The translations under genes and the position numbers were made by a program. Below are positions 5,739-36,945 of a stretch of 64,000 nt of DNA, in pieces; the first letter of the stretch is position 1; every line of letters begins with the position of its first letter. Under the pieces are notes generated by a model. The model did no database searches and had not been told where the DNA came from. It saw nothing but the letters and a program-made list of their open reading frames with translations. The stretch comes from an uncultured Acidimicrobiia bacterium (GTDB taxonomy: Bacteria > Actinomycetota > Acidimicrobiia > Spongiisociales > DATADW01): contig CAWGYV010000016.1 in NCBI GenBank assembly GCA_963826825.1, positions 414,771 through 478,770 on the forward strand, written 5' to 3'.

Positions 5739-5868
5739 GGCGGCAACGTATGACCCACCTGCGACATTCTCCGTGGCCCCGGCGTCAACCGCTCACTGCC
5801 AGCGCGACGGGTCCACGGTGAGCGGGCGAGTGCTGTCCACACCCGTGGGCAACGACTTCTTCGCTGCC

Positions 5869-6495
5869 TCACGTATCGGCTTGGGCGCCACCTGACCGAG
5901 GCGGAGTCTCCCGTGCACCCAACGCCCCCAGTTCGAGAGCTGCGAGCGCCTCGATGACCTGGGTATCGCCCCGCAGCAATGCCGAGCCAGGGGCTGAGTC
6001 GATGGCGGCGAGCTGGCGGATCGGGCGGTTGGCCAGCGCTCGGATGGCGAAGAGGGTCGTGTCGTCGCGCATGGCGTTCGCCGCCTGGGAGGCCCGGATC
6101 CAGATCAGGCGGCCCGGCAGCCACAGGATGAGAGCGAATGCAATGGGGAGTGCGGCTACGACCACCCCGACCCAACGGGCGAGACGGACCGCCGCCTCCT
6201 GTTGTGACTCGCCGGCGTCTGCGATACCGGCAACAGCGGACTGCGCAGACTCGAAGGGGGTGGCGAGGGCATCGCCGAGCAGCGGCGCATCGGCCAAGGT
6301 GTCCGCCACAGTTCCAAACGCACCCGCGACCTCCTGGGCGGCGTCTTCGAGGAGCTCACCGGGGATCGCCAGTTGAGCGACCAACTCGTAGAGATTCACG
6401 CCGACCCAGATCCACAGGATGATCCAGCCCAAGACGATCAGGTCCACGATGATCTGGCGCCGGCGCACGGTGGGGAGATCGGCATACAGTCTCAT
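5869..6495 (-). CDS. Hypothetical membrane protein (2 predicted TM helices)
   Basis: The ORF is 5869..6567. The likely start is MRLYADLPTVRRRQIIVDLIVLGWIILWIWVGV at 6495, and a second hydrophobic span reads WVGVVVAALPIAFALILWLPG. I recognise no family. Confidence 0.55.
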   Translation of the reverse strand: MRLYADLPTVRRRQIIVDLIVLGWIILWIWVGVNLYELVAQLAIPGELLEDAAQEVAGAFGTVADTLADAPLLGDALATPFESAQSAVAGIADAGESQQEAAVRLARWVGVVVAALPIAFALILWLPGRLIWIRASQAANAMRDDTTLFAIRALANRPIRQLAAIDSAPGSALLRGDTQVIEALAALELGALGARETPPRSGGAQADT

Positions 6496-6591
6496 CCGCC
6501 CATTGTGCGCCGATGTGACCGACGCCGTCGTGCTGGGTCCAATCGCCGGCGGCGGGTCCGCCGGCAAGCTCCAGCCTCGTAGACTGCTGTC

Positions 6592-7479
6592 ATGCCGGAT
6601 CGTCCCCCGTTGACGTCACGCGCCCGCGACGCGCTCAGGGAACGGCTCTCGTTCACTGCTCGGCGGAGGATCGCCATCGCTCGGGTGACGGCGCGCCGTC
6701 CCACCTCGACGTGGCGGGCGCTCCCCGGGCTCTTGGTGATCGGCACCCAGCGGGGTGGCACCAGTTCTCTCTACCGATACCTCGGGTCTCACCCGCAGGT
6801 GGTGCCCTCGCTCCGCAAGGAGGTCGAGTACTTCACGCGGCGCTACACCGAAGGCGATGGTTGGTACCGGGCGCACTTCCCGCTTGCTACAGCCGAGGGA
6901 CCATGACCTTCGAGGCCGACCCGTACTACATGTTCCACCCCCTCGCCGCCGAGAGGGCGGCGAAACTGCTCCCAGACGCCCGGCTCGTGGTGATGCTGCG
7001 CGACCCGGTCAAGCGCGCCTTCTCCCATTGGCAGCACAACCGAAGGCTCGGTGTCGAGCCGCTCGACTTCGCCGCCGCGATCGAAGCGGAGCCCGAGCGG
7101 CTTGCCGGCGAGGAAGAGCGGATCATGGCCGACCCCGGCTACGACCCGTGGAACCACAACATGCTGTCCTACTCGGGTCGGGGCCGTTACGCCATCCAGC
7201 TGAAGAAGTGGCTGGAGCACTATCCCGAAGACCATCTTCTCGTGATTCGGAGCGAGGACTTCTACGCCGACACACCCGCCACCTTCGACCGAGTGGTGAG
7301 TTTCCTCCAACTGGAGCCGTGGCGGCCGTCCGAGTTCGCCAACTGGAGCTATTCGAGTAGCGGTGGACCGGCGAAGGAGAAGATCGACCCGGAGATCGCC
7401 ACGGCGCTCGCCGAGATCCTTCGCCGCCGACAACCGGGAGTTGGAGGCGATGCTGGGGTGGGATGCCAAATGGACCTGA
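6592..7479 (+). CDS. Sulfotransferase-family protein (frame breaks ~6900 and ~7425)
   Basis: A PAPS 5'-phosphosulfate loop (LLVIGTQRGGTSSLY), then LVVMLRDPVKRAFSHWQH and RGRYAIQLKKW. The C-terminus is recovered by shifting frame: FAADNRELEAMLGWDAKWT-stop at 7477..7479. Confidence 0.8.
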
Positions 7480-7483
7480 CCGC

Positions 7484-8754
7484 TCAGACGTGATGACTCA
7501 GACCTGACCGCTCAGCTACCACGTCGAGCGCTCGCAGGTAGAACCGCTCCACCCTCGCCGCCACCTCGTCGGCGTCGTACACGCTTGCCACCTCGTGGCG
7601 GGCGGCTGCGCCAAGCCGGTTCCGCTCCGCCGGGTCGGCGAAGAGTCGCGTCACCATCGCCGCGATCGCCGCCGGATCCTCTGCGGGAACGAGCACCCCG
7701 GTCTTGCCGTCGTCCACCACATCGCTCATCGGACGCCGGTCGGTGGTCACGACGGGGAGCGCCCGGCCCATCGCCTGGAGCAGCGAGACACCCAGACCCT
7801 CGAACAGCGAGGGGAAGACGAACACGTCGGCGGCGCCCAACAAGCCGGGGCACATCGGAACGCCGATCGAGGAGCATGACCCGGTCGGCGAGACCGAGTT
7901 GTTCGATGAGGGACTCCACCATCGGGCTGGATGCCCCGGGCCGACCCGCCACCAGGAGCACGGCGCCCGGAACCTGCTCCAAGATCGCCGGCATCGCCTC
8001 GATCAGGTAGCGGTGTCCCTTCTGAGGCTCGACCCGGCCCACGGCGAGCACGACGAAGGCATCGTCGGCCAAGCCCAGCTCGGAGAGGATCGATCGCCTC
8101 GCCTCGTCGCGGGAGCCGCCGGCGTCGAGCTCGGCCAGGTCGATCCCCCGCGGGATGACATCGATCCGTTCGGGGCGCAGCCCGACGACGCTCTGCCACG
8201 ACTCGGCAACCGCCGGGGTGAGCGCCTGGAAGCGCCTCACTGTTCTCATCGTGATCCGATCGAGCAGCCGGTGACCCTCCAGCTTGAGCTTGGTCACCCC
8301 CGGGTTGTCGGTCACCCGCACCGGCTCGTGGCTTATGTTGACCAGGCTCTCCACCACCGGGATTCGACGCCGGGCTCCGACCAGCCGGGCGGCCAGCCCG
8401 GCGTTGGCCAGCGAACCGTGGATCAGGTGGGGCCGGATCTCGGCGACCGCCCGGTCGAAGGTCCGCACCAGGTCCCAGCGGCCCGACGGCCGGGCGTCGC
8501 CCTGGTAGAGGAGGTGTATCGGCACCGTTCTCGGGCACTTCGTCGCTCCGGCTCCCGACTGTGTCCTCGTAGACCACGGCCAGGGCGTGACGGAGGCGCG
8601 GGTCGGTGAACCGGCGCAGGTTGGCGACGAGCTGCTGTTCAGCGCCGCCAACCGTGCCGAGCGAGTCGATCACGTGCAGTACGAGCCGGGGACATCGGGC
8701 GGCGAGGGTAACCCGGGGGATGTCCGCCGCGAGCCCGTCGAGGTCGCTTGACAC
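7484..8754 (-). CDS. Glycosyltransferase family 4 / group 1 (frame breaks ~8530 and ~7850)
   Basis: The N-terminus reads RLVLHVIDSLGTVGGAEQQ. The middle reads VLAVGRVEPQKGHRYLIEAM...LLVAGRPG. The C-terminus reads LLGAADVFVFPSLFEGLGVSLLQAMGRALPVVTTD (the EX7E region). The three parts lie in three frames. Confidence 0.85.
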
Positions 8755-8780
8755 CGGTCCGTCCTACCATCGCTCCGCCA

Positions 8781-9576
8781 ATGCGCTGGAAGTCCGCTCG
8801 TCCACTGCTCACAGCCGGGCTTGTCCTGGCGCTGGTGGCGTGCAGCGGTGGGGGCGCGGGCCCCACCGAGTTCAACCAGGCCGACGGACCGTCCCCGGGA
8901 CTCCATCACCCGGCCAAGCAGGCCGTCGACGACGCTGCCCACCAGGCCCTCGAGGACGACGGTTCCCTCGGCGACGCCAACCACCGCGGGCGGCCCGACC
9001 CCAACGGCGCCCGTCGGTGAGCCCACCGACGTAGACGGCCTGGTCGGTTTTGTGGGGTGCTCGATGACCGAGAACGCGGTGGACGGCTACGCCGCGCTGG
9101 GCGGAGACAAGTTCTGGCCCAGGTTCGGTCGCTACGGCGGGGGCACGGTGGGACGCTGGGCGTTCGGCGCCGAGGCCGGCAGCCGTCTGTGGGCCATTTT
9201 CCGCGGCCAGTTGAGGGATCAGCCCGACACCGCCGCCATCTGGTGGCAGCTGTGCACCTTCGCCGGAGGTGCTCAGGACGACCTCGACCGGGCGCTCGCC
9301 GTGCTCGAGGAGATCAAGGCCTCGGCGCCGGGCCTCCCCATCTACGTCTCACCCCAGCCTTCCTACACCGACGGCCACGTGTGCGAGATCGCGGGCGACG
9401 GCGGGCCTGAGCGCATGGCGCAGTTGGCCGCAGACGTGGTCGCAACCGGCGAGGTCATGGCTGGTCCTCCTCAAGGCCCTCTGCCCTCCGACGTGACCCG
9501 CGACGGTTGTCATGCCGATACCGCCGGCCAGGAGATCCTCGGTGAACAGCTCGAGGCGTTCTTCGACGCAGGATGA
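8781..9576 (+). CDS. Lipoprotein with SGNH-like C-terminal domain (one frame break ~8850-8950)
   Basis: A signal peptide plus lipobox (MRWKSARPLLTAGLVLALVAC-SGG) is followed by a Pro/Thr linker. Then come a block-I-like GFVGCSMTEN and a block-V-like RDGCHADTAGQ. The domain is homologous to the C-terminal domain of the 17329..18497 protein. Confidence 0.6.
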
Positions 9577-9721
9577 CGGGCGAATCTGTGCTCAGGAGGG
9601 TGGGGACTGCCGCCGATATACTCATCTGCTGGGTTGATCGTCGGCGCGACGCGCCGTGACCCCGTCCCGGCCGGCGATCTAGTCGCCGAGTGCCACCATC
9701 GTGAGCAGGGAGACCCCAACA

Positions 9722-10728
9722 ATGGCCGATGTCCCAGTCGGCGAGATACTCGTGTCCGTCGAGGACGTCTCCAAGGTGTATATCCCCTCGCCCACCTGGC
9801 TCCGGGTACTCATCCGTTCCTCGAGCAAGGAGGCGGTGACCGCGCTCGACCGGGTCAACCTGAAGGTCGGTGCAGGCGAGATATGCGCTGTCGTCGGCCC
9901 CAATGGCGCAGGCAAGTCGACCCTCTTCCGCATCCTCACCGGTCTCACCACCCCGAGCAGGGGCCGTGCATTGGTGGGCGGGCTCGACGCCACCCGCCAG
10001 TCGTCGCGGGTACGGCGGATTGTCGGCTTCATGCCCGCCGACGACCGCTCGCTCTACCTCCGCAACACCTGCGTCGAGAACTTGAGGTTCCACGGGCGTC
10101 TCCAGGGGATGGACTCCGGCGATATCGAGCGACCGGATCGACGAGGTCCTCGAGATGGTGGATCTGAGCTACGCCCGCGACCGTGTCGGCTTCGCCCTCT
10201 CCTCGGGGATGCGAGCCCGTCTCCAGTTGGCGCGTGCCCTCCTCCACCGGCCCCGGGTCCTGATCCTCGACGAGCCGACCTCATCGGTCGATCCGGTCGC
10301 CGCCTACGGGTTGGTCCAGCTGATCAAGCGGGTGGCAGAGGAGGGCAAGGTCGCCGTTCTCATCAGCTCGCACCGGCTGGAGGAGGTCGAGGAACTCCAT
10401 GACAACGTGGCCATGCTCAACAAGGGTCGGATCATCTACTGGGGCGACCTGGACGTGATGCGATCCAAGTGGGAGGAGTCGACGGTCGAGATCGAGTTCG
10501 TCACCGAGGCCATGGCGACCGAGGCCAGCATCCGGCTCGCTGCCATGGAAGGTCTGGAGCTCATCGAGTTGGATGGCACCCAGTTGACGGTGGCCACGCG
10601 CCGCCCCCACCGGAGCGCTGCTCGCCAGGCTCGACGGCCAGGTAGATGGGATCGTTTCCCTCCGTCACACCAAGATGCCGCTGCTCCGTCTCTTCAGCAA
10701 GATCGTCGCGGACGAGGTGACGGAATGA
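9722..10728 (+). CDS. ABC transporter ATP-binding protein, DrrA/ABC-2 type (frame breaks ~10125 and ~10605)
   Basis: Walker A is GPNGAGKST, the signature is LSSGMRARLQLARAL and Walker B is VLILDEPTSSVD. ATG 9722 is preceded by AGGGAG; the ORF track starts at GTG 9701. The stop overlaps the permease start (ATGA). Confidence 0.88.
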
Positions 10729-11562
10729 GCGCTCTCGCCACCGTCGGGGTCAGCACGCGCCGCGCCGCCGGCATCTCCGGGGCCTTCTTCCGGATGGGGT
10801 GGAACTACTCCACCAACTACCCACTCGGTTTCTGGCTCGGCCAGGTCAGCCAGTTGCTCCCGGTGGTGATCTTCTACTTCATCTCCCAGCTCAACGTGAA
10901 CTCACCGGCCGTCGGAGGCGACTACTACACCTTCGTCGTGCTCGGCTTCGTGGGGATGATGATCATGGCCCCGGGAGTCAACGGGCTGAGCTTCGAGCTA
11001 GAGGCGGCGATGCTCCACGGCCACTGGGAGATGCTCCTGGTGGAGCCGGTCCCCTGGCGACTCCTGCCTTTCACCATGGTTGTCTGGCCCACCGGTCTCC
11101 GGCTTCTCCTCATCATGGTGATGGTCGTCCTCTCGACCGTGCTCGGTGCGGTCTACGACCCATCGGGGCTCGGTGTGGCGATGCTCATCCTGCGTGCTCG
11201 GTCTCGGCACCGGGCTGGCCATCGGTGTGCTCTCCGCCAGCATCAAGGTGCTGGCCAAGAAGGGCGATCCGGTGCTCACGCTCTACATGCTCGCCACGCA
11301 GGTGCTGTCCGGGCAGTTCTTCAACATCGAGGCGCTACCCACGCCGCTCCGGATCCTGGCCTATGCCATCCCCCAGACCTACGTCAACCAGGGGCTGCGC
11401 AAGGCATTGATGCCGTCGGGTGACATCATCCCCGGATTCGGGATCCCCGAGTCGCTCATCGCCCTGGCCGCGTTCAACCTGCTGCTGCTCCCGGTGGCGA
11501 TATGGCTGTTCGGACGGTCGATGGAGTACGGGCGGTCGATCGGCGTCCTCAGCGGGTACTGA
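10725..11562 (+). CDS. ABC-2 type transporter permease (frame break ~11190)
   Basis: MSALATVGVSTRRAAGISGAFFRMGWNYSTNYPLGFWLGQVSQLLPVVIFYF begins a multi-TM protein. It continues in ORF 11146..11562 (GLGTGLAIGVLSASIKVLAK...LLLLPVAIWLF). Confidence 0.8.
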
Positions 11563-11565
11563 TCC

Positions 11566-12742
11566 TCACGAACTGAGTTCTCGCTCCAGAGGCGTCCGAA
11601 ACGCGACGTCACGCGCAAGGCTCCGAGGACGCCAGCGACCCGCTCGGCCTCGCAGGCCCACCGCCTCGGCGCCCTCAGTCGGGACATCCTCCAGAAACCG
11701 GATGGCGATCTCGCCATCCTTGCGTTGCGCCCATCCCCCCACGACCCGCCCCTCCCACCAGATCGTTGGGCCGGCGTTGCCGTTCCGGTCGAACAACTGT
11801 GGGCGATGATCGCCCAGGTACCAGGACCGCTCCGACCAGCCCATGATGGTGGAGTCGAGGGCGGGGAGAAGCGCCGCCCACGGTTCGACCTCGGCCACCT
11901 GGTCGGCGTCGTCGGCGAGCACCACACCGGTTCCGGTGTCGAGTGCCACCTCGACCAGTTGCAGCCCGGCGAGGGCGGCAGTGGTCTGTCGGGCCGTCCA
12001 CCCCGTCCACCAGGTGAGGTCGCTGACCGGTGCCGGACCGAAGGCGGCGAGCCAGCGGCGGGCAAGCTCGGTCCTCGCCTCGTCCACGGCAATCTCGGGG
12101 ATGCCCCCGGGCACCCAGGTTTCGCTCGGCGCCCATCGATAGAGGGTGCTCAACCATGTCCCCTTGGGGCGACCCCTCACGATCCGGCCGTCGGCCCCGA
12201 GAAGGAACAGGACCTGGGTGGACATCCCGATCTTCCCCGCGTAGTTCTTCCCCTGGTTGACCTCGACCTGCACTCTCAACTCGGGCACATCCGAGGACAG
12301 CTCGGCCGCGGTCGCCTCACCCCGGGCGGAGAGGGCCTCGAGTGTCGCCTCTTCGACACGGGCCAGCCACGCCCCTGGGTCGTCCCCCACGCCGGCCTGG
12401 GCGACCAGTTGGACGATGCGGCGCCGTTGCTTGACCGCGATATCGGCGGTGACCGCCGACTGGATCACTCCAGCCAGATCCGCTGGGTACCACGAACACG
12501 GTGCGGCGCATCCCGAGTAGCCGCACAAGCGAGCGGTCCTCGTAGAGAGCCCTCTCCAGCGCCGAAACGTCCGGCGGGTTCATCCGGGCGGTCGCACCGA
12601 GGAGCACCGTTGCCGGGTCGGTGGCGTGGAGCCCGACGAGAGCAGCGGCGACCGCAACCGGGTCGTCGGTTCTCTTGGCGAGCAGGTGCCGTCTCGCCAG
12701 CCGGGCGCGCCGCTGCTCCACGGTGATGCGGAGGGTGGTCAC
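11566..12742 (-). CDS. Winged-helix AlkZ/YcaQ-like (HTH_42) protein, putative DNA glycosylase (frame break ~12490)
   Basis: The N-terminus is VTTLRITVEQRRARLARRHLL...LVGLHATDPATVLLGATAR. The C-terminal part carries FGPAPVSDLTWWTGW and GNAGPTIWWEGRVVGGW. The GTG start overlaps the stop of the upstream hydrolase (GTGA). Confidence 0.7.
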
Positions 12743-13593
12743 AGCCTCCGGCGCACTATCGCGGTGATCAGTTCTATCGCGGTTTGCTGCGCCTCGAGCG
12801 AGCGGAAGCTGCTCAGATCGCCCCGCTCGGTGACCGCCACCTCGATCCCGGGTCGAGAGCGCTCCAGGTAGTCCCCGAGCGGACCCTGGCGGAGTGACTC
12901 GAACGAAACGAGTTCGAGGTCGTCCGCTCCGAAGACGAGATCGACGGTGACCCCTCGATCGCGAAGCTCGCCCATATCCGCTCGGAACGACCCCGGGGTG
13001 AGGCTGATGTCGCGCGCTTTGGGGCCGGCCGGGGCGGGGCGGAGTCGCCGTGTGGCCCACCTCGCCGCCGGCCGCCACAACTCGGGGTTGGTGGCGACGT
13101 TGGCCACACCCCGCCATCCCATCTTGCGGGCCCTCCAGTCGGCCTTGGTCTGCTCGGCGGGGAAGGGGAAGGAGACAAGCACCAGCCCGGAAAGGTTCTC
13201 CAACTGCGACGCCGCCGCCAGCGCCGATCGTCCGCCGAAACAGACACCGATCACTAGAAGCCGGTCGGCGGCCCCACTCAGCGTGTCGCACACCGCCACC
13301 ACATCGCCGACAAAGGGCCGGTCGAGCACGAAACGGTCGATCTCACCGCTGCTGTCTCCGACACCATGCCAGTCGAACCTGACGACGGTGTGCCCGAGAG
13401 CGGCTATCTCCCTCGCCAGCCTCACCACGACACGGTTGCGGTTGGTCGAGGTCCCGTACCAACCGCCCGGGCAGATCACCACTCCGGTGCCGGTGGGCAT
13501 CTCGGGTCTCGTGACCACCGCCGCCAGGGCACCCTCGGGACCATCGACGAACATCGCCTGCTCGTTGGCGATGATGCCGTCACCATGCGCCAT
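12739..13593 (-). CDS. Alpha/beta-hydrolase-fold protein with a Cys at the nucleophile elbow
   Basis: Intact, 284 aa. It carries VVICPGGWYG, RFDWHGVGDSSG and the elbow LLVIGVCFGGRSAL (G-x-C-x-G rather than G-x-S-x-G). Confidence 0.7.
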   Translation of the reverse strand: MAHGDGIIANEQAMFVDGPEGALAAVVTRPEMPTGTGVVICPGGWYGTSTNRNRVVVRLAREIAALGHTVVRFDWHGVGDSSGEIDRFVLDRPFVGDVVAVCDTLSGAADRLLVIGVCFGGRSALAAASQLENLSGLVLVSFPFPAEQTKADWRARKMGWRGVANVATNPELWRPAARWATRRLRPAPAGPKARDISLTPGSFRADMGELRDRGVTVDLVFGADDLELVSFESLRQGPLGDYLERSRPGIEVAVTERGDLSSFRSLEAQQTAIELITAIVRRRL

Positions 13594-14458: not shown

Positions 14459-14498
14459 GTCCAGAGGGTGGTCATCACCCCCTGAGGAGATGGTCACG

Positions 14499-28158: not shown

Positions 28159-28197
28159 CGTCAACCCCTTGTCCCCTTCCTACCGGGACGGTTGACG
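28159..28197 (-). promoter_or_regulatory. Conserved 5'-leader hairpin of LPXTG-A (paralogous element at 29646..29683 upstream of LPXTG-B)
   Basis: The stem cgtcaacc ... ggttgacg (8 bp, 23-nt loop) lies just upstream of the GAGGGAG Shine-Dalgarno. Copy B has cgtcacc ... ggttgacg. Confidence 0.5.
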
Positions 28198-28280
28198 ACC
28201 CAGGCGTTGAGGCAACTTAGATAGATCCCAAGGGAAACGCATCGCAAACCGACTGACTTCTTTAGCCAATTCGGTTATTG

Positions 28281-28386
28281 CAGATCCTGATCGGTGAAGC
28301 GGCGCACCATTAGTTCGAACCGGGGTAGCACGTTCCGAAGACGGCAGCTGCTCGGGGGCGCCGTCCCCCGGCTGCGCCGCACCTGA
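28281..28386. other. Duplication junction: degenerate copies of the CapK/PaaK-like gene 3' end and the GT2 gene 3' end
   Basis: 28281..28345 resembles 29775..29850 (gatcc..tcggtgaagcggcg..g.tcgaaccgggg.agc). 28346..28386 resembles 27150..27198 and still reads LGGAVPRLRRT-stop. Confidence 0.8.
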
Positions 28387-28411
28387 GCCGGGTCTCCCTA
28401 GACCCGGCTCA
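28384..28411. terminator. Second copy of the GC-rich hairpin, downstream of LPXTG-B
   Basis: The sequence is tgagccgggtc-tcccta-gacccggctca. It is a paralog of 27196..27226. Confidence 0.6.
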
Positions 28412-28461
28412 ACGTACGGACTACCCCTCAGCCGGCCAGCGTTCTAGCCGGACAAACTCGC

Positions 28462-29598
28462 TCAGCCGGAGGAGAAGGGCTTGTCGGGAGCGGTGTCCTC
28501 GCTCCGGCGCCTGGCCGCTCCTAGCGCCACTGCGCCCGCAATCAAGAGCGCCGCACCCAGGCTCAGCCAACCACCGCCACCGGGCCCGGTGTTGGGCAAC
28601 GTCGGGGGCACCGTCGTCACGACCGGGATGGTCGTGGGTGTGGTGGTGACGGTCGTCTGGAAGGGGGCGTTGCAAAGCGTCGACGCAGGCGGGTAGGGCA
28701 CCTCGAACACCTCGGTCTGAGGGTTGAGCGTGAGCTGGATGAAGATTGGCCGGTAACTCTCGGGCGGCCACGTGATCGGGTCGGTCGAGTCGTCGTAGCC
28801 CGGCCAGAGGCGGTTGACCGACACGTTCCCCTGGGCATCGGCGTTGACCGTCATCACCTCGATCTCGTTCATGTCACGGTCGTAGATGTGGAGCTGGATC
28901 CCGGTGGCGTTTGCCGGCCAGCCGCTCGACTCGACCACCAGGTGGGGTACGGCGTTGATGCACTCGCCGGTTGCCACCGGGACCGTGGGCGGCGCCGTCG
29001 TGGTCGTAGGCACCGTGGTTGATGTGGTAGTGGTTGACGAGGTGGTGGACGTGGTCGTGGTCGATGAGGTTGTCGATGTGGTCGTGGAAGTTGTCGTTGT
29101 GGTGGTCTGGTCTGCGCAGAACACCAACACCGTGTAGTCCACGGAGGTGCCCACGATGTCATCGTCATCGGGCATCCATGATGTTGTAGAGCTCCATCGT
29201 CTCGCCGAGGACGAGGGTGGGGTCGTCGAGCACGGTTCTCAGGACATTGGGCTCCGATTCCGTCTCGAGGACGTCGGTCTCGCTGCCCCCGGTCACGATC
29301 AGCCCGAGGTTGTTGACGTGGACGCTGTCGCCATTGGCCGCCAACACGATGATCCTGCAGGTCTGTCCGACCAGGTCCTCGAACCCGTTGGCCACCAGGT
29401 CAAAGCTGGCGACAAACCGCTGCACGCCTTCCTGGTCGGTCTGATCGGCGTCACGGGGGATGAAGAAGTCCGACCCCGTGAAGGTGAAGTCGGGAGTGGG
29501 AGCTGAGCCTGAGCCGGCACTGCCAGCACGAGAGGCACCGCCACCAACGCGGCAACCACGACTGCCGCCAAACGTCTTCTCAGCCCCGAAGCGGACAA
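28462..29598 (-). CDS. LPXTG-type cell-wall-anchored surface protein, copy B, with an extra middle domain (frame breaks ~29500 and ~29170)
   Basis: The signal peptide is LAAVVVAALVAVPLVLAVPAQAQ and the N-domain reads FTFTGSDFFIPRDADQTDQEGVQR. A Thr/Ser-rich linker and an extra domain follow. The anchor reads LPNTGPGGGGWLSLGAALLIAGAVALGAARRRSEDTAPDKPFSSG-stop. Confidence 0.85.
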
Positions 29599-29768
29599 GC
29601 CGCCATAACCCTATCGTGCGAACTCCACCCACGTCGCTCTCCCTTCGTCACCCCTTGCTTTCGCCTACCGGGCACGGTTGACGACCCTGGCGTATAAAGC
29701 CAATCTAGACAGACCCAAAAAGAAACGCGTGCACGCCGGTCCTTTTCCGCCAGCCGGCTGAGATCTCC

Positions 29769-31077
29769 TTACCGGAGATCCTTGCGGTGGTCGGTGAAGC
29801 GGCGTGCCTTGAGGTCGAACCGGGGAAGCGTCCCCATCGGAACCGTCGTGGCCAGCGGCCGGACTCCGATCCCGGTGTGGATCTCGCGGGCTACGGCGGC
29901 GGCGAGGGCGTCGGGATCACCCGTGGTGACCTCGATGCGCAGCTCCATCACGTCGAGCTCTTCCTTGCGGTAGACGTCGACAGCGAACTCGCCGATCTCG
30001 GGGAAGCGCCGCACCAGGTTCTCCACTGCGCTGGGGAAGATGTTGACGCCGCGCACGATGAGCACGTCGTCGACCCTCCCGGTGACACCACCCTCGAAGC
30101 GCATGAAGGTCCTGCCGTCCTCGCTGGGTTCGGAGGCGACGACCACATGGTCGCCGGTGCGGTAGCGGATCACCGGGAACCCGGGGCGACCCAGGTTGGT
30201 GATGATCAGCTCGCCGTCGTTCGACTCCTCACCGGTGGCGGGATCGATCACCTCGGCGAGGAACTCCGCCTCGTTGACGAACAGCCCGTTCTGGAGTTGT
30301 GACTCGAAGCCCCAGGCACCGACCTCGGTTGCGCCGGCATGGTCGTAGGCCCGTGCCCCCCACGCCTCTTCGATCCTCGCCCGGGTCGCCGGGATCCCTG
30401 CCCCGGGCTCGCCGGCGTGGATGGCCACTCGCACACCCGAGTTGGCGATGTCGATCCCCTCCTCGGCTGCCACCTCGGCGAGGTGGAGGGCGTAGGTGGG
30501 GGTGCACACCAGCACCGAGATGTCGTTGACCAGGATCGCCTTGAGCCGCTGCAGCGACGACATCCCACCGCCGGGGAAGGCGAGGGCGCCGATGAGACGG
30601 GCACCTTCATAGGCGCTCCAGAAACCGATGAACGGCCCGAACGAGAAGGCGAAGAAGATGCGGTCCATCGAGGTGACACCGGCACTGCGGTACACCTGCG
30701 ACCAGCAGCGGGCCCACCACCGCCAGCTGTCCTCGGTGTCGAGGCAGCGCAGCGGCTCACCCGTGGTACCGGACGTCTGATGGATCCGGGTGTACCGGGT
30801 GCGGGCATAGGTGAGGTTGGTCCCGTATGGCGGATTGGAGATCTGGTCGGTGGCCAGTTCCTGCTTGGTGGTGAACGGGATCTTCTTCAGGTCGTCCATG
30901 GTGCGGACGTCGTCGGAGCTGCGAATGCCGGCACGACCCAGCTTGCCCCGGTAGAAGGCGTTGCCGTCGAGCACCTCGTCCAGCAGAAGCTGAAAGCGGC
31001 GCAAGCTGGACCTCCTGCAAGGCGTTGCGGCCCAGCGTCTCGGCGAACCCGGTCGAAAACTCGAACTCCATCGTCAT
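29769..31077 (-). CDS. Adenylate-forming enzyme of the phenylacetate-CoA ligase / CapK / F390-synthetase-like family (frame break ~31004)
   Basis: It carries IHQTSGTTGEPLR, DHAGATEVG, RYRTGD and VDDVLIVRGVNIFP. An extra N-terminal 24 aa (MTMEFEFSTGFAETLGRNALQEVQ) lies in the adjacent frame, with GGAGGG upstream. Confidence 0.82.
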
Positions 31078-31103: not shown

Positions 31104-31716
31104 TCAATCGAGCGACGGAGCGGGGTCCACCCCCACTGGAAACTTCTCGTTTATCAGCATGAACGGCAGCCCATCGTGGACCACCCGGTAGGTGCGGGCG
31201 ATGAACTCGCCCAGCCCTCCGAGCCCTTCGGGCGGAACGGCATTGCGCTCCCGCCCGTACCAGAGGATGTCGCGCCTCGTCTCGAGACCGGCATCGTTCA
31301 TGATCCTGCCGAGCCCACCGGGGTGGGTGGCCAGTTCATCCTGGACGCTGCTCGGAAGCCGCTCGGCGACCAGGAGCGAGGCGGCGTGGGCGAACACGAC
31401 ACCACGCAATGTGCCTCGTGAGCAGCACCTCGCGGGCGATCACCCTTGTCCCGGCGGGAGCCTCGAGCCATTCGTGGTCGGCAGGGAGGACCAACTCCTC
31501 CTGCGACAACCGCTCGACCACGACCGGCTCCATGGTGAAGGCCTCGATGAACTTCGTCACCGTGCCGTCGATCACCAGCAGCGACCGGTAGAAGGGGCTC
31601 AACGCCCTGAAATTGACCGGCTGAAGCGTCTCCGGCCGGGCGAACTGGGCGACGAACACCTCGGCGGCGGGATCGAACCCGGCGGTGGTGCCGACAGCGG
31701 AGCTTTGGTGACCCAT
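31104..31716 (-). CDS. Chorismate pyruvate-lyase family protein (DUF98, Rv2949c-like; frame break ~31400)
   Basis: LLVIDGTVTKFIEAFTMEPVVVERL, VFAHAASLLVAERLP and FIARTYRVVHDGLPFMLINEKF align by eye with my memory of the mycobacterial chorismate pyruvate-lyase. Confidence 0.65.
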
Positions 31717-31717: not shown

Positions 31718-33435
31718 TCAGCTCACCTGAACCTGCTGAAGCTCACCCGACTGGTACATCCGCTTGAAGTGGCTGTGACGGCGCTTGCCGCTCGAGGTCT
31801 TGGTGAGCGTGCCCGTCGGGACCAGCACGACGTCGACATTGATGCCCAGCCTGAGGAAGCTCTGGCGGCGAATCTCGCCGGCGATCTCGTCGGCGGGACG
31901 GGGCATGGGGTCGGTCACCTCGCTGACGACGACGACCCGCTGCGTCCCTTGGCCGCTCTCGTCCATACCAAAGGCGGCGAAACACCCCTTGCGCAGCCCC
32001 TGCACCTCGAGGAGGAAAGGCTCGAAATCGCTCGGGTCGAATTTCTTCCCCCGGACCGTGATCCGCTCCCGGACCCGACCGGCCCAGTAGAGCTCGTCGT
32101 CGCGCATGTAACCCAGGTCGCCTGTACGGAGAAGTTCGCCATGGATCGCCCGCTTGGTGGCCTCGGCGTTCTTCAGGTAGCCGTTCATCCGGGAAGCGGT
32201 GTCGAGGGCGATCTCGCCGACGTGACCCTCGGGGAGTGGCTCGCCGCGGGGCGAGAGGATCTGGATCTTGATCCCCGGATGGGGCTCGACCCGATCCGAC
32301 GATGCTCACCGCCTTCTCGTCGGTGGGGTCGACGATCCGCGCCGTCCGCGCCTCCGGCCAGGGCGTCGCGGTCCACGAACTCAACCCGGTACGGCTCCCC
32401 GGGACGGGTGAAGGTGGCACCGCCGATGTTCTCGGCGCAGCCGAAGTTGGTGCGCAGCCGGTCCCATGGCACTCCGAAGCTCTCGAACCGGCGGTGGAAC
32501 TCGACGAACGTCTCGTGGTGGATGCGCTCGGCGGCGTTCCACCAGCCGCGTACCCCGCTGAGATCGACACCCTCGATATCGCTGTCCTTGACCCTCTGTG
32601 CCGCCAGGGCGTACCCGAAGTTGGGCGACCAGGTGACGGTCGCGCCGGTGCGCTGCACTCCCTGGAGCCATGCCGCCGGCGACTTGACGAAGTCGTGGGG
32701 GCTCATCAACACCAGGGGGATGCCGGTGGCCATGCAGGTGAGGAAGTTGTTGACCAGACCCATGTCGTGATACAGCGGGGTCCAGTTGAAGAAGACGTCC
32801 TGGTCGGTCAGCTCCATGGCGGCCACCATCCCGTCGATGGCGGCGGTGAGCGCATGGTGCTCCCAAACACAGACCTTGGGGAGACCGGTCGTCCCCGAGG
32901 TGAGCTGGTACGCAACGACCTCGGAGGGGTCGGGGAGGTGACGGGGGACGGCGTCCACGTCGGGAGCGCCCAGCGCCTCGTCCTCGGAGAAGAGCCAGCG
33001 CGTCGAGCGTCGGACCCGTTCCAACTGATCGCGGTCGCGGGCCATCGAAGCCGGCGCCACCACCAGTTGCGCCTCGGTGCGGCGCACCGTCGCCGAGAGC
33101 ACCCTGGGCAGGTCGGAGTTGGCACCGAGCAGCGAAGGTGGCGCCACCAGAAGAGGACGGGCGCCCAGGAGCAGCGAGCCGAGCACCAACGTGGCCGCCG
33201 GCTCTGCGCTGCTGAGCACGATGACGACGGCGTCGCCCTGGCCTACACCTAGCTCTGCCATTCGCCCCGCCGACCCGGCGGCGGCAGCGTGGACCTCGGA
33301 GTAGGTGCGCCAGGTGGTCGTGCCGTCGGGTTGGTAGAAGGCGAGGGCGCGCTGCTCGGGAGCGCGCTCCAGACGCTCGTAGAGCCGCGCCGGCACGGTC
33401 TCGGGGAGGATGCTTGTGCGTATCACGGGGCTCAC
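31718..33435 (-). CDS. Fatty-acyl/aryl-AMP ligase (FAAL-like adenylating enzyme; frame breaks ~32345 and ~32283)
   Basis: It carries YQLTSGTTGLPKV and the FAAL-typical WTPLYHDMGLV. Shifted frames give ARIVDPTDEKAVSIVGSGR and PHPGIKIQILSPRGEPLPEGHVGEIAL. The C-terminus carries TGDLGY and TSSGKRRH. Confidence 0.82.
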
Positions 33436-33439: not shown

Positions 33440-34456
33440 TCAAAGGGTCCGGCCGATGGCCACCGATATCCGGCGGCACTCCTCGACCAGGTTGGAAAGC
33501 TGATCGGGGGTCACCGACTGGTCACCGTCGGACAGAGCCTGCTCCGGGTTCTGGTGCATCTCGATGAGCAGCCCGTCGGCCCCGCTGGCGATGGCGGCAC
33601 GCGCCATGGCCGTCACCAGCGAGCGCCGTCCGGTGGCGTGGCTCGGGTCGACCACCACCGGGAGGTGGCTCAACTCCTTGAGCACCGGGATGGCGTTGAG
33701 GTCGAGAGTGTTGCGGGTCGCCGTCTCGAACGTGCGGATCCCCCTCTCGCAGAGGATCACGTTGGTGTTCCCCTGCGACATGATGTACTCGGCGGAGAGC
33801 AGCAGCTCCTCGATCGTGGACATCATGCCCCGCTTGAGCAGGACCGGCTTGGGCTGACGGCCCGCAGCGAAGAGCAGATGGAAGTTCTGCATGTTGCGGG
33901 TACCGATCTGGAGGATGTCGGCGTACTCGGATACCAGCGGTACCGTCTCGGATGACATCACCTCGGTGATCACCGGCATCCCGGTGAGGTCCCGCGCCTC
34001 GGCGAGGATCTTGAGCCCCTCCTCGGCCATGCCCTGAAAGCTGTATGGCGAGGTTCTGGGCTTGAAGGCGCCGCCGCGGAGGACGGTGGCGCCGGCCTTC
34101 TGGGCGTGGATGGCGGCCTCGATCAGCAGGTCGCGGCTCTCGACCGAGCATGGCCCGGACATCACCACAACCTCTTCTCCGCCGATGACGACGCCGCCGC
34201 CGAGATCGATCTGGGTGGGCTCGGGCCGGTATTCACGGCTGGCCAGCCGGTAGGCGCGCTTGGTTGGGAGCACCCGCTCCACACCGCGCAACCCGGTGAA
34301 CGCCGACGGCGTCGCGTCGTCGAAGGAGCCCAGGATTCCGATGAGGACCTGGCCGCCGTCCTCGGAAACATGCGACTTGAGACCGAGGCTGTGGACCCGG
34401 GCCACGACGTACTCGACGTCCGCACGGGTCGCCGCCATCTTCATCTTGATGATCAT
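33440..34456 (-). CDS. aroF: 3-deoxy-7-phosphoheptulonate (DAHP) synthase, type I-beta with N-terminal regulatory domain
   Basis: The ORF is intact. It carries [38 protein letters not shown] and [11 protein letters not shown]. The start is [17 protein letters not shown] at 34456. Confidence 0.88.
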
Positions 34457-34675
34457 GCTTGCCGTTCTCCCCGACACTCGGACCCGGTCCGGTCCGCTCC
34501 ATTGGCATGCCCTCTCCGGGCATCCTGGAGCCGGCCGAAATGCCGGATCGCCCCTTCCCCGCAGTCATCGACTTGCGGGGGTCGGACCGGCTGCTGCTGC
34601 CACGCGCCCCGACCGTTGTCGATATCGGCACCGTCAGCGGGCAACTGAACAGGAAACTCCTGGTCAGGTCACACC

Positions 34676-35159
34676 CTATTCGACCGGGCAGGCCCGTTGC
34701 TCGGGGCCTCGTTGGGCGTGGTCTTCCCAGAACCTGGCGATGGCCGCGGTGTCGGCACCGTCGAGCCGCAGCATCACCGTCCACGCGGTGGCGACCACCG
34801 GCGCCGGCATGCCTGCCCTCGGGGCGATGATGACGTGGCTGCCCAGGTCGTCGGCGAGGCCCCGCAGCGCGGCGAGATCCTCTTCGTGCCAGGTCCGGGT
34901 CGTGCTGCACCACGACGACCCCGTGCTCCAGATCGTGCACCTGGACCACGTCGGGTATCGGCTCATCGTGTACCCCGCAACGCGACCACACCGGAGCGTG
35001 CGCCCCGCTCGTGGGTGGATCCGTCCCGTACTCAGGGAGAGGGTCACCGGCGGACAGGTGGTCGCGGCCCTCGTCGGGAAACTGCTCCACCGAACCGCTC
35101 GCAGCGCTGGCGGAACAGGCGGCGACTGCGACCAGCAGAATCGCCCCGAGGCGGATCAC
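34676..35159 (-). CDS. DUF3105-like secreted protein (frame break ~34890)
   Basis: A signal peptide (MIRLGAILLVAVAACSASA) is followed by YGTDPPTSGAHAPVW and VHDLEHGVVVVQHDP. After a shift it reads LGSHVIIAPRAGMPAPVVATAW. Confidence 0.6.
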
Positions 35160-35934
35160 CGGCCGCGAAAGGCCGGGTCACGCCCTTCGAGAAAGGCGGC
35201 GACACCTTCCGCAACGTCCTCCGTGCCGAGGCTGATCGCCTGGGCATGGGACTCGTGGGCCAGCATCTGCTCGAAGGTGGCGCCGAGCGAGCGGTCGAGT
35301 CCCTGCTTGATGAAGGATTGCGCCAGCGGGGCGCCTGCGGCGAGGCTCTCGGCCAGCTCGGTCACCACGACCTCCAACTCCCCTGGCTCCACGACCTCGA
35401 GCACCAAGCCGATTCGGCGCGCCTCGTCGGCCTCGACCATCCGACCGGTCAGCGCCAGTTCCTTGGCTCGTCTGCAGCCCGACGATCCGGGGCAGCAGCC
35501 AGGTGCCCGCGAAGTCGACCGCAAGACCGCGCTGGACGAAGAGCTCGGCGAACCGGGCCCGAGACGAGGCGACGACGAGGTCGCACCCCAGTGCCAGGTT
35601 CATCCCGGCACCAACGGCAGCACCATCGACCGCCGCCACAGTCGGCTTGGTCAGCCGGTGCAGCGATCGCGCCGCTGCGGCCACGGTCTGCAGCCGCTCG
35701 TAACGGTCTCGGTGCGAACCGAGCCCACTGCTGATGCCCGAGGCGGACAAGTCGGCGCCCGAGCAGAAGGCTCCACCTGCTCCGGTGATGACGAGCACAC
35801 GCTGGTCGGCCCGAGGAGAAGTCGTCGAACGCCTCGGCCAGTCCCACCCACCCGTCGGGCGGTATGGCGTTGCGGCGCTCCGGTCGGTCGAGGGTGAGCC
35901 ACCGCACAGGTCCGCGGTCCTCGATGGTCAGCAT
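35156..35934 (-). CDS. Enoyl-CoA hydratase/isomerase family (frame breaks ~35800 and ~35490)
   Basis: MLTIEDRGPVRWLTLDRPERRNAI / VLVITGAGGAFCSGADL...KPTVAAVDGAAVGAGMNLALGCDL / AKELALTGRMVEADEARRIGLV lie in three frames. Confidence 0.82.
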
Positions 35935-35940
35935 GGCTGG

Positions 35941-35989
35941 GACGGTAGACGGCGGACGGCGGACGGCGGACGGCGGACGGCAGACGGCG
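35941..35989. repeat. 7 x 7-bp tandem repeat GACGG(C/T)(G/A) in a divergent intergenic region
   Basis: The units are gacggta gacggcg gacggcg gacggcg gacggcg gacggca gacggcg. The array lies 7 nt from the enoyl-CoA hydratase ATG (minus strand) and 34-82 nt upstream of the CMD-family TTG start (plus strand). Confidence 0.95.
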
Positions 35990-36022
35990 GCCAGAATCGG
36001 ACAATACGGACAAGGAGGGTCT

Positions 36023-36607
36023 TTGGCCTTCATCGACTTGCTCTCGGAACGGAGCAGGCGGCTGACGCGGTTGGGGCTGCCTGCCGGGGAGGAGGTGCCC
36101 AATTACGCACGGTTGGGCGCGCTCCATCCCGATGCTTATGCGGGGTGGGAGGCGCTGATCGCCGCCATCAGGGAGGGAATGGACCGGCGGCGTTACGAGC
36201 TCGCCACGGTGGCGGCGGCGAAGCGACTCGGCTCGAGTTACTGCTCGCTTGCCCATGGCAAGGTGCTCGCTGAGCGGTTCTACGACCCCGATCAGGTACG
36301 CGCCATCTACTCCGATCGGACATCCGCTGGGCTCGACGAAGTGGACGTGGCGGTGATGGATCTTGCCGAGAAGGTGGCCGCCGATGCGACCTCGGTCGGC
36401 GAGAGGGACATCAAGCTGCTGTTGGAACTCGGGCTGAGCGAGCGTGACGTGCTCGACGTCGTGCTCGCCGCCGCCGCACGCAGCTTCTTCACCAAGCTCT
36501 TGGACGCCATGGGTGTCGCCCCGGACGGCTCATACCGCCGGCTCGACGCCGACCTCGTCGAAACACTCACCGTGGGACATCCCATCGAAGGGGCTGCTCC
36601 CCTCTAA
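36023..36607 (+). CDS. Carboxymuconolactone decarboxylase (AhpD-like) family protein
   Basis: TTG start at 36023, 4 nt after AAGGAGG (36012..36018). RYELATVAAAKRLGSSYCSLAHGKVL and DVVLAAAARSFFTKLLDAMG are present. The longer ORF-track N-terminus is rejected. Confidence 0.6.
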   Translation: MAFIDLLSERSRRLTRLGLPAGEEVPNYARLGALHPDAYAGWEALIAAIREGMDRRRYELATVAAAKRLGSSYCSLAHGKVLAERFYDPDQVRAIYSDRTSAGLDEVDVAVMDLAEKVAADATSVGERDIKLLLELGLSERDVLDVVLAAAARSFFTKLLDAMGVAPDGSYRRLDADLVETLTVGHPIEGAAPL

Positions 36608-36616
36608 CCTCTGCCT

Positions 36617-36730
36617 GTGGGCTTCAACCCGTTCCGTCAGCAGCGGCACAACGGCGCCGATGTGGCGATCGTCGTCATGGCGGTTCTGGTCACGGCGGCA
36701 GTGGTGGCGTGGGCGCTGCTCGGAGGGTGA
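36617..36730 (+). CDS. Possible 37-aa single-TM small protein
   Basis: My own translation is VGFNPFRQQRHNGADVAIVVMAVLVTAAVVAWALLGG-stop. The stop overlaps the next GTG (GTGA). It is not in the ORF track because it is under 60 aa. Confidence 0.35.
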   Translation: MGFNPFRQQRHNGADVAIVVMAVLVTAAVVAWALLGG

Positions 36731-36945
36731 GCGGGAAGGGCTGGCCCCAAGCCGAGGTGGTCACGCCGGTCCAGCCGCACGCCGCCCGAAAGTCGTACGT
36801 CTGCCCGGGTTGCGAGAGCCTCATCCCCCCCGGGACCTACCACGTGGTGGTGGTCCCCGAGGACGCACCCGACCTGCGCCGTCACTGGCATCGGGGCTGC
36901 TGGTACCGGGAGCAAAGGCGGCGGCACGGGACCGCTCCCAGCTAG
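36727..36945 (+). CDS. Small Cys-rich zinc-ribbon-like protein
   Basis: VSGKGWPQAEVVTPVQPHAARKSYVCPGCESLIPPGTYHVVVVPEDAPDLRRHWHRGCW contains the pattern CPGC...H..C. The ORF track gives the start at 36709. Confidence 0.5.
   Translation: MSGKGWPQAEVVTPVQPHAARKSYVCPGCESLIPPGTYHVVVVPEDAPDLRRHWHRGCWYREQRRRHGTAPS

Follow-up and report, generated by a model that had tools for sequence, protein, structure and literature searches.

A 31-kb cell-envelope gene block between comM and yraN is shared by genus-level relatives of an uncultured Acidimicrobiia bacterium

In the 64-kb stretch of Acidimicrobiia DNA analysed here (the window; GC content 67%), comM and yraN are separated by ~31.2 kb with ~31 genes between them, and the locus raises the question of whether this block is an accessory insertion, as the initial annotation proposed, or a settled part of the genome. 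Elsewhere, yraN and comM lie a median of 165 nt and no more than 4880 nt apart (43 Actinomycetota loci, counting only those in which tblastn detected both genes), and the two genes are adjacent in 33 of the 43. The gap in the window is far outside the range of the other loci, which bears out a block of ~31 kb between the two genes. We consider it probable that this block is a lineage-specific cell-envelope supercluster, built up in the spacer between an enoyl-CoA hydratase/isomerase (ECH) gene and comM, inherited vertically and composed as a three-unit mosaic with a putative glycan pathway.

The insertion itself is smaller than the gap. An ECH gene lies between yraN and comM in L011, L013, L015, L020, L045, L065 and L171 (L numbers denote the loci compared), and is therefore an ancestral resident of the yraN–comM interval in Acidimicrobiia. 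Since ECH is ancestral, being present between yraN and comM in most Acidimicrobiia relatives, the insertion proper narrows to ~5742–35155 (~29 kb), with the ECH stop codon as its right edge, and the rightmost 1.8 kb of the gap, comprising ECH (35156–35935) and a CMD gene (36023–36607), forms an older layer. The CMD gene is common to L170, whose ECH is 81% identical, and seems to have been added between ECH and yraN separately and slightly earlier. On the left, comM holds as the anchor that was first assigned, whereas its start lies at ~5741, as mapped via the intact L088 orthologue, rather than at 5738. Genes were called with a self-trained codon model and named by Pfam; lists of open reading frames (ORFs) are noisy at such a GC content. 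The genes that frame the gap are the following.

~4256–5741, minus strand: comM (Mg-chelatase-like ATPase), left anchor (Pfam Mg_chelatase 5e-75, ChlI 3e-37)
35156–35935, minus strand: ECH, with a frameshifted N-terminus (Pfam ECH_1)
36023–36607, plus strand: CMD/AhpD-like peroxidase-related protein (Pfam CMD; TIGR01926 2e-20)
~36950–37290, minus strand: yraN (UPF0102), right anchor (Pfam UPF0102 5e-13; a 98-aa gene in L082, L084 and L085)

The divergent region between the ECH and CMD starts contains a 7-nt tandem repeat (GGACGGC x 7.3; 35940–35990).

Genus-level relatives, found by exact-protein look-ups and homologue searches, are represented by six long-read contigs from five ENA samples. 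All eight loci on these contigs that span a junction (L081–L088) have the block at this site with its gene order unchanged; nucleotide identity to the window is 93–96% (L081, L082, L084, L085, L086 and L088), 86–89% (L083) and 83–85% (L087), and the carriers represent at least two species. Jointly, the contigs cover both junctions, and the whole interior is covered in a contig of 793 kb. Substitution identity in the block compared with the backbone is 0.905 versus 0.883 for L083, 0.862 versus 0.837 for L087 and 0.945 versus 0.950 for L088. Divergence of block and backbone is thus nearly equal, as expected if the two have diverged together since one ancestral event. It follows that the block was acquired or accreted at the level of the genus, is fixed there and is inherited vertically, and that it is not a strain-variable accessory island. 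Indeed, the label "accessory" given in the initial annotation does not stand, because the gene set and its order recur at this site in close relatives, with backbone-like composition and divergence. The synteny comparison anchored on comM and yraN that had been recommended there finds the block kept within the genus and missing at this site in family-level relatives.

Change at the strain level is limited to the comM edge and the genes for Thr-rich proteins. At the comM edge, L088 carries an extra fragment of an aminoglycoside phosphotransferase-like (APH) gene (7399–8432), and L087 carries two DUF2382 genes and a GH43 fragment (6466–8129); this extra DNA corresponds to ~5773–5917 of the window, which has ~130 nt there. 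Small-scale gene turnover is continuing at the comM junction.

Compared with its flanks, as had also been suggested, the block exhibits no deviation in third-position GC content (GC3), codon usage or tetranucleotides. GC3 is 0.831 across 29 block genes and 0.830 across 27 flank genes (p=0.94), relative synonymous codon usage correlates between block and flanks (0.983) as it does between the two halves of the flanks (0.982), and the deviations in tetranucleotide usage of block and backbone agree with r 0.973. When block and flank windows are compared by tetranucleotides, with each flank window left out of its reference, the difference is not significant (p=0.18). Total GC content drops by 2–4 points at 17–31 kb, a stretch that encodes Thr-, Ser- and Asn-rich secreted proteins, and the drop is restricted to first codon positions (GC1 0.631 versus 0.717). 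The low GC content at 17–31 kb was rejected as a foreign signature, because GC1 reflects amino-acid content, and GC3 and codon usage are the same.

The initial annotation had reported no integrase, transposase, tRNA or border repeats, and this description is confirmed: ARAGORN finds no tRNA or tmRNA gene in the 64 kb, Pfam scans detect no integrase, recombinase or transposase domain in the block ORFs, and the border zones (5500–6000 versus 34400–37050) have no common word of ≥11 bases, direct or inverted, where ~1 shared 12-mer is expected by chance. No Rfam family reaches the gathering score anywhere in the 64 kb. The sole tyrosine recombinase nearby is the housekeeping xerC (2283–3173), which occupies the same position in all relatives. 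Together with the presence of the block in 8 of 8 loci at 83–96% identity, which in this limited sampling leaves no patchiness among close relatives, these results support the view that the block is not a recognisable mobile island.

AbaR-type islands in Acinetobacter target comM, and share with the block the feature of a large non-core segment at this gene. However, the block lies beside comM and not inside it, and has no transposition genes, target duplication or compositional deviation. The use of comM as an AbaR-like integration target was rejected on the grounds that the block is outside comM and that comM is intact in L087 and L088.

The accessory label would usually imply a genomic island that was recently acquired by horizontal transfer and is still strain-variable. 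Such an island could account for the large size and cell-surface gene content of the block, the interruption of a conserved gene pair, the small gene-fragment differences at the comM edge and the breaks in the short-read contigs of relatives at the locus, and the GC dip of 2–4 points would be in keeping with it. Yet that dip stems from first codon positions, GC3, codon usage and tetranucleotides are indistinguishable from the flanks, the mobility genes, tRNA and border repeats of an island are missing, the block is present with its order kept in all genus-level contigs retrieved, including those with only 83% nucleotide identity, and the divergence of the block equals that of the backbone. We regard a recent island as very improbable.

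Family-level relatives, compared as 20-kb loci, show what the junction looks like where the block is missing. In L002, L011, L013, L015, L020, L045, L065 and L171 the junction is compact (yraN–comM 1.1–4.9 kb), with the order DUF2469-yraN-ECH-comM-dprA-xerC-sigma-rpsB-tsf and with backbone proteins ~55–80% identical to those of the window. At these eight loci, the only matches to block genes are to ECH, which is itself missing in L002, and to the generic ABC ATPase family (L045 and L171). The spacing between ECH and comM is only ~75–150 nt in L013, L015 and L020, and these three loci contain no remnants of the block between the two genes. Among species-representative genomes, the best match to the window is L001, from an Acidimicrobiia metagenome-assembled genome (DUF2469 98% identical at the amino-acid level, DNA 83–88%). 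The comparison supports the view that the block has been inserted, as seen against other Acidimicrobiia and Actinomycetota.

Other Acidimicrobiia hold different genes in the same interval, namely an ABC pair, a deaminase and a gamma-glutamyltranspeptidase in L045, a HAD hydrolase in L002, a PfkB kinase in L006 and five small genes with no assigned function in L171. The yraN–comM interval is a soft spot, or permissive gap, rather than a target site. The block had been described as sitting inside a deeply conserved order; that gene order is present, but the description is overstated, since the Mycobacterium and Streptomyces order is only partly valid for Acidimicrobiia, which keep ECH between yraN and comM, have no rnhB beside lepB and carry various unrelated genes in the yraN–comM interval. 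Reference orders from these two genera do not transfer unchanged to Acidimicrobiia, and a break in textbook synteny alone is no evidence for an accessory or mobile island.

A different history would make the block ancient in Acidimicrobiia and repeatedly lost, the compact yraN-ECH-comM arrangement then being derived. The fully native composition would fit, as would the homologous units found in other contigs of 60% GC content, which are probably related, and the assorted genes in the interval of several relatives. These homologous units, however, do not lie beside yraN or comM, at least eight family-level loci have no block genes at the site, three of them with ~75–150 nt between ECH and comM and no remnants, and a single gain is a more parsimonious account than a long series of independent clean deletions; we consider repeated loss improbable. 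On the reading that we favour, the block would have accreted in a spacer of ~100 nt, from the ECH stop codon to the comM start, in the ancestor of one Acidimicrobiia genus. As a finding on genome architecture this is ordinary: an envelope cluster settled in a permissive gap and was then inherited like a core gene.

Could the block instead be an artefact, a chimeric contig joining unrelated DNA at one or both borders? The window is error-prone, with frameshifts in rplS, ffh, lepB, comM and ppc. Nevertheless, the same order is found across the left (L087 and L088) and right (L081–L085) junctions in independent assemblies of five other samples, and the density of indels relative to related contigs is 1–8 per kb throughout the window, with no step at either block border. 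A chimera is exceedingly improbable, and the initial annotation's caveat of a false join at either border falls away with the independent contigs that span both junctions.

We read the frameshifts of the window as assembly indels rather than decay, because essential genes are affected. They split comM (within 4049–5741, over at least two frames; intact, with 491–501 aa, in L087 and L088), ffh, lepB (39208–39709), ppc (52977–55642), a gene of the major facilitator superfamily (MFS) and the GT4, ABC ATPase, FAAL and chorismate lyase genes of the block. In addition, trmD and rplS are fused into one ORF (39685–40818) with the C-terminus of L19 out of frame, and an indel joins two C-methyltransferases of the block in a single ORF; the orthologues are intact in related contigs. 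Pseudogenisation of comM, rplS, ffh, lepB and ppc was rejected, given that essential genes are affected, that the orthologues are intact and that 37 indel positions are common to all four comparisons. Single-ORF readings anywhere in the window are unreliable.

The gene content of the block bears on what it may do. The initial annotation held that nearly all of its ~30 genes concern surface glycans or proteins, acyl-carrier chemistry and export, which agrees with their Pfam content. From left to right, the genes of the insertion are as follows.

5869–6495, minus strand: 208-aa predicted membrane protein, leftmost block gene (no family; kept in L087 and L088)
6702–7493, plus strand: sulfotransferase (Pfam Sulfotransfer_1, Sulfotransfer_3; 263 aa in L088)
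7484–8680, minus strand: GT4 glycosyltransferase, frameshifted (Pfam Glycos_transf_1, Glyco_transf_4; 395 aa and intact in L088; homologue in L172 50–52% identical)
9064–9576, plus strand: secreted protein with Pro/Thr-rich N-terminus (no family; three paralogues in L172)
9720–11562, plus strand: ABC exporter, ATPase and ABC-2 type permease, frameshifted (Pfam ABC_tran, weak ABC2_membrane match; intact, with 334 aa and 278 aa, in L086, L087 and L088)
11566–12741, minus strand: AlkZ-like winged-helix protein (Pfam AlkZ-like 2e-46; 391 aa in L088)
12739–14545, minus strand: two alpha/beta-hydrolases (Pfam Abhydrolase_1)
14499–14750, minus strand: stand-alone acyl carrier protein (ACP), divergent to the second ACP (Pfam PP-binding; an exact-sequence look-up returned no record)
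14988–15227, plus strand: stand-alone ACP (Pfam PP-binding)
15224–17316, plus strand: conserved three-gene set of a 213-aa protein with no family, a 133-aa lipoyl-domain-like protein and a 345-aa SGNH/GDSL-like protein
17329–20859, minus strand: surface-protein set of an S-layer homology (SLH) protein, a beta-helix protein and a second SLH protein (Pfam SLH, CEMIP_beta-hel, Beta_helix)
21031–25323, minus strand: nucleotide-sugar unit of two C-methyltransferases, an NAD-dependent epimerase/dehydratase (SDR) and a glucose-1-phosphate cytidylyltransferase (Pfam Methyltransf_13, Methyltransf_14, Methyltransf_23, Epimerase, NTP_transferase)
25429–27198, plus strand: second sulfotransferase and GT2 glycosyltransferase (Pfam Sulfotransfer_1 9e-19, Glycos_transf_2 2e-24)
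27243–29632, minus strand: two Thr-rich secreted proteins (from their translations; the second has a C-terminal LPNTG sorting signal, followed by a hydrophobic stretch and a basic tail)
29769–31070, minus strand: PaaK-like adenylating ligase (Pfam AMP-binding_C_2)
31104–31716, minus strand: Rv2949c-like chorismate pyruvate-lyase (Pfam Rv2949c-like PF01947, 3e-8)
31718–33435, minus strand: FAAL-type acyl-AMP ligase, 568 aa (Pfam AMP-binding)
33440–34456, minus strand: class I-beta 3-deoxy-D-arabino-heptulosonate 7-phosphate (DAHP) synthase (Pfam DAHP_synth_1)
34676–35158, minus strand: DUF3105 protein, rightmost gene of the insertion (Pfam DUF3105)

In relatives, the DUF3105 start and the ECH stop codon overlap (10774–11256 versus ECH 10001–10777 in L084 and L085), and the gene is missing from family-level relatives.

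Profile scores give equivalog-level assignments for two enzymes, the glucose-1-phosphate cytidylyltransferase (TIGR02623, 353 bits versus a 300-bit cut-off) and the DAHP synthase (NCBIfam NF006421, 479 bits versus a 335-bit cut-off). The lyase is a predicted chorismate pyruvate-lyase of the Rv2949c family, with PF01947 above its cut-off even on the frameshifted gene (34 bits versus 22 bits), and the intact orthologues of 203 aa are also matched. NCBIfam matches of the FAAL and the PaaK-like ligase remain below cut-off; PDB matches for the aromatic unit comprise FAAL structures and 2nwi, and among solved structures the FAAL is most closely related to ACP-loading FAALs and to McyG. The best NCBIfam matches of the two hydrolases are TIGR03100 (1e-15, 57.7 bits, cut-off 168) and TIGR03101 (2e-22, 79.7 bits, cut-off 203), and the proteins appear, at these scores below cut-off, to be remotely related to the families of exosortase-A-associated hydrolase 1 and hydrolase 2.

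The lipoyl-like gene (15867–16268) adjoins the SGNH-like gene (16279–17316). A protein of 476 aa, P0197, is a fusion of a lipoyl-like with an SGNH-like domain, which supports the idea that the two proteins work together. For the SGNH-like protein, no homologue between 97% and 56% identity occurs in 5.8 billion proteins, which fits a genus-restricted version of a wider family. Among the surface proteins, the SLH domain PF00395 scores 51.7 bits (20260–20904) and 35.2 bits (17661–18497) against a cut-off of 20.8 bits, one SLH protein is split by a frameshift in the window and has 393 aa in L086, and the beta-helix protein carries a twin-arginine signal (motif RRTFIK in the translation). The genes for the Thr-rich proteins are the most variable part of the block, with 74–88% nucleotide identity and a copy number that differs among relatives, and contain tandem repeats of 21 nt and 27 nt (27498–27631, with 6.4 copies, and 29015–29103). 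Two further repeats lie in unit 3 of the block, as defined below. A (CGC)n run at 18538–18608 encodes a stretch of ~24 glycines close to the C-terminal end of the beta-helix protein, and a 15-nt repeat (x 2.9) at 23474–23516 encodes a VPVHD pentapeptide repeat at the N-terminus of the first C-methyltransferase ORF.

From its arrangement, the block reads as a mosaic of at least three units, two of which are found separately in unrelated contigs. Unit 1 (~6.7–17.3 kb) comprises a sulfotransferase, the GT4, the secreted protein, the ABC-2 pair, the AlkZ-like protein, the two hydrolases, the two ACPs and the three-gene set; unit 2 (~29.8–34.5 kb) the PaaK-like ligase, the chorismate pyruvate-lyase, the FAAL and the DAHP synthase; and unit 3 (~17.3–29.7 kb) the SLH/beta-helix proteins, the CDP-hexose C-methylation genes, a sulfotransferase, the GT2 and the LPXTG Thr-rich proteins. 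A search for the block elsewhere, as the initial annotation had advised, recovers parts of it, as separate units, in L090, L091, L172 and L173. In L090 and L091 (JGI contigs, 60% GC), the series hydrolase-hydrolase followed by DAHPS-FAAL-lyase-PaaK-ACP is uninterrupted in a different genomic context, with proteins 29–70% identical to those of the window. In L091 the unit is located next to lpdA, an E2 gene and lipoate genes; genes for a sulfotransferase and an ABC ATPase are in the vicinity. The Logan contigs L172 and L173 hold a GT4, the secreted protein (three copies), the three-gene set, an ABC pair, two hydrolases, an ACP and a sulfotransferase in another arrangement, L089 has the three-gene set with an ACP in yet another context, and in a further contig the pair of lipoyl-like and SGNH-like genes adjoins the rpsI-rplM ribosomal cluster. 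A metagenome scan with the FAAL protein returned no confirmed relative, whereas a scan with the DAHP synthase did find relatives.

Unit 3 looks as though it was nested into an older aromatic unit, because the PaaK-like gene and the ACP, which lie 15 kb apart in the window with unit 3 between them, are directly adjacent in L090 and L091. Further genes surround the L091 unit: before it (3113–7652) lie lpdA, an E2 acyltransferase gene and a fused LipB-LipA gene, and after it (14672–16405) an FAD-dependent halogenase- or monooxygenase-like gene. A link between the lipoyl-like protein of the block (15867–16268) and lipoyl-type swinging-arm chemistry is possible.

The three units may be functionally unrelated neighbours that were gathered in a permissive gap and have no common product. 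They occur separately elsewhere, the gap of other relatives holds unrelated genes, and the AlkZ-like, DUF3105 and CMD proteins are odd members. What argues for a link in the window between the aromatic and the glycan/export genes is the hydrolase pair with its ACP, because the same pair goes with the aromatic genes in L090 and L091 and a similar pair plus ACP with the glycan/ABC/SGNH unit in L172, and the single pair of the window would serve both. The surroundings of the aromatic unit in L091 also include a sulfotransferase and an ABC ATPase homologue, and the gene order is kept across at least two species. We take unrelated neighbours to be a real, if clearly less likely, possibility.

We suggest the following route for a supercluster with a common product, as judged from the predicted enzymes. 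The dedicated DAHP synthase would raise the supply of chorismate, which the Rv2949c-like lyase would turn into 4-hydroxybenzoate, and the FAAL-type enzyme would load this or a similar acid onto a stand-alone ACP. The PaaK-like enzyme may activate a second acid or form an ester, as proposed for FevW/BagE, and the paired hydrolase-fold proteins could be acyltransferases or thioesterases through which the acyl group is moved to a glycan. The glycan would derive from a CDP-activated, C-methylated hexose, be assembled by the GT2 and GT4 enzymes and then be sulfated, after which the ABC-2 transporter would export it. The SLH proteins and the sortase-anchored (LPXTG) proteins could be co-encoded partners on the same surface. 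The product is likely an acylated, sulfated surface glycoconjugate.

Several observations weigh against this reading. The block contains no initiating phosphoglycosyl transferase, flippase or polymerase; Pfam detects no Bac_transf or Glycos_transf_4 (MraY-like) match in the block for an initiating transferase of the WecA/WbaP type, while the related cluster of L172 has a Bac_transf. The FAAL, PaaK-like, lyase and hydrolase matches fall below curated family cut-offs, so that the substrates are guesses, and the AlkZ-like gene, the DUF3105 gene and several family-less genes fit no role in the model. Co-location is no proof of a single pathway. As for its origin, the units could sit elsewhere in the family-level genomes, of which 20-kb loci were seen, and relocation is then not separated from horizontal gain. 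The genus is represented by six sampled contigs from one ENA assembly set, and may include a member with no block. The short-read contigs of L001, L012 and L170 end at or beside the locus (75 nt past DUF2469, 58 nt past DUF2469 and 119 nt past ECH, respectively), for which strain heterogeneity or problems of coverage at the edge of the block may be responsible.

Among known systems, the block resembles an ABC-transporter-dependent surface glycan locus (O-antigen, teichoic-acid or capsule type) with what may be an acyl-ACP decoration branch. The likeness lies in the clustering of NDP-sugar activation, an SDR, C-methyltransferases, GT2 and GT4 glycosyltransferases and an ABC-2 pair, and the three parts of such a locus, nucleotide-sugar synthesis, glycosyltransferases and an ABC-2 exporter, are all present. 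The block differs in that no initiating phosphoglycosyl transferase was found in it, in its non-standard components (two sulfotransferases, two stand-alone ACPs and an aromatic-acid unit), and in its placement, which is within a housekeeping synteny block rather than a polysaccharide region of its own. A comparison with SLH anchoring on a pyruvylated cell-wall polymer gives a mixed result: the secreted proteins have SLH domains, while no CsaB-type pyruvyl transferase (PS_pyruv_trans) is detected by Pfam among the block ORFs.

In mycobacteria, Rv2949c makes 4-hydroxybenzoate and FadD22 then adenylates the acid (bioRxiv 10.1101/2020.02.20.950329). The p-hydroxybenzoate starter module of phenolic glycolipids and p-hydroxybenzoic acid derivatives (Rv2949c, FadD22 and Pks15/1) shares with the block an Rv2949c-like lyase beside a FAAL-type, carrier-dependent adenylating enzyme, with glycosyl- and methyl-transferases nearby. 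In contrast to that module, the ACP of the block is separate, with no ACP domain in the FAAL-like enzyme, and Pfam finds no polyketide synthase (PKS) domain in the window, so that neither the FadD22-ACP fusion nor Pks15/1 has a counterpart. The block has an extra DAHP synthase, a PaaK-like ligase and paired hydrolases, its lyase and FAAL matches are weak or below family cut-offs, and its host is a member of the Acidimicrobiia that has no mycolate envelope.

Aromatic clusters of the bagremycin/ferroverdin type have a DAHP synthase of their own (BagF/FevY) and, as condensing ligase, the PaaK-like BagE/FevW, with roles given in PMC6692506. A dedicated DAHP synthase and a PaaK-family enzyme also occur in the block, and the NCBIfam models NF041229 and NF041217 are matched, but at 368 versus 700 and 93 versus 800 bits, below the exception-level cut-offs. 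Moreover, the block lacks a 3-amino-4-hydroxybenzoate (3,4-AHBA) synthase and a tyrosine ammonia-lyase, and its context is a glycan locus, not a small-molecule cluster.

In exopolysaccharide loci, the exosortase-A cassette consists of hydrolase 1, hydrolase 2, an ACP and an AMP-forming ligase (the TIGR03100/TIGR03101 neighbourhood in the TIGRFAMs annotation). To our knowledge, the function of this cassette is putative. The block is similar in having two unlike, adjacent hydrolases beside a small ACP and adenylating ligases in a polysaccharide locus; its hydrolases, however, score 57.7 versus 168 and 79.7 versus 203 bits and fall outside the two families. Neither an exosortase nor PEP-CTERM proteins occur within the 64-kb window, where the sorting signal found is LPXTG. 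The block is not a member of the phenolic glycolipid/p-hydroxybenzoic acid derivative (p-HBAD) system, of the exosortase cassette or of the comM-targeting islands.

The part worth following is the recurrent hydrolase pair with an ACP and ligases, joined to an on-site supply of aromatic acid. One specific form of the pathway, which we consider doubtful, is a PKS-free glycoconjugate in which 4-hydroxybenzoate or a related acid made on site would be carried by the ACP and moved by hydrolase-fold acyltransferases to a sulfated C-methyl-hexose glycan exported by the ABC-2 pair. If true, this glycoconjugate would be, in function, a remote counterpart of mycobacterial p-HBAD and phenolic glycolipids, and the hydrolase 1-hydrolase 2-ACP-ligase core (window, L090, L091 and L172) would be a widespread uncharacterised glycan-acylation device akin to the exosortase-A-associated cassette. 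Should the association represent a general device for acylating surface glycans, cassettes named only "exosortase-associated" would gain a testable function, and there would be insight into the envelope chemistry of the Acidimicrobiia. This class is common and uncultured in soil and freshwater.

The flanks of the block contain, apart from the anchors, the following genes named by Pfam.

2–520, minus strand: tsf, left flank
520–1335, minus strand: rpsB, left flank
1526–2281, minus strand: sigma factor, left flank
2283–3173, minus strand: xerC, left flank
3183–~4259, minus strand: dprA, left flank
37279–37575, minus strand: DUF2469, right flank
37659–39093, plus strand: MFS gene, between DUF2469 and lepB
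39208–39709, minus strand: lepB, right flank
39685–40818, minus strand: rplS and trmD, right flank
49436–49765, minus strand: rimM, right flank, followed by a KH protein and rpsP
50512–51893, minus strand: ffh, right flank

Every named gene of the tsf...ffh order is found in order by Pfam, except rnhB. The order is broken at comM|yraN (31 kb), at DUF2469|lepB (the MFS gene) and at trmD|rimM (8.6 kb). The initial annotation had noted that rnhB is absent with an MFS gene in its place, and both points hold, although the absence of rnhB is common to Acidimicrobiia and the MFS gene is specific to the genus. Indeed, rnhB is not beside lepB in any Acidimicrobiia locus examined, and its absence there is a class trait. 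The MFS gene (37659–39093) is seen only in genus-level relatives (L001, L081–L085 and L170); in family-level Acidimicrobiia, which have no MFS gene, DUF2469 directly follows lepB.

Of the 37 shared indel positions, 22 are concentrated at 41000–44000, which covers the acyl-CoA dehydrogenase and DUF4097 genes and represents either a poorly polished stretch or real gene decay. This stretch belongs to the trmD–rimM interval (40819–49435, ~8.6 kb), the second interruption of synteny, whose genes encode YbjQ, an acyl-CoA dehydrogenase, DUF4097, an M15 peptidase with a peptidoglycan-binding domain, CofH/CofG (F420) and a secreted protein. The cofG/cofH part of the interval is common to L011, L015 and L020, and rimM adjoins trmD in L019, L033 and L076.

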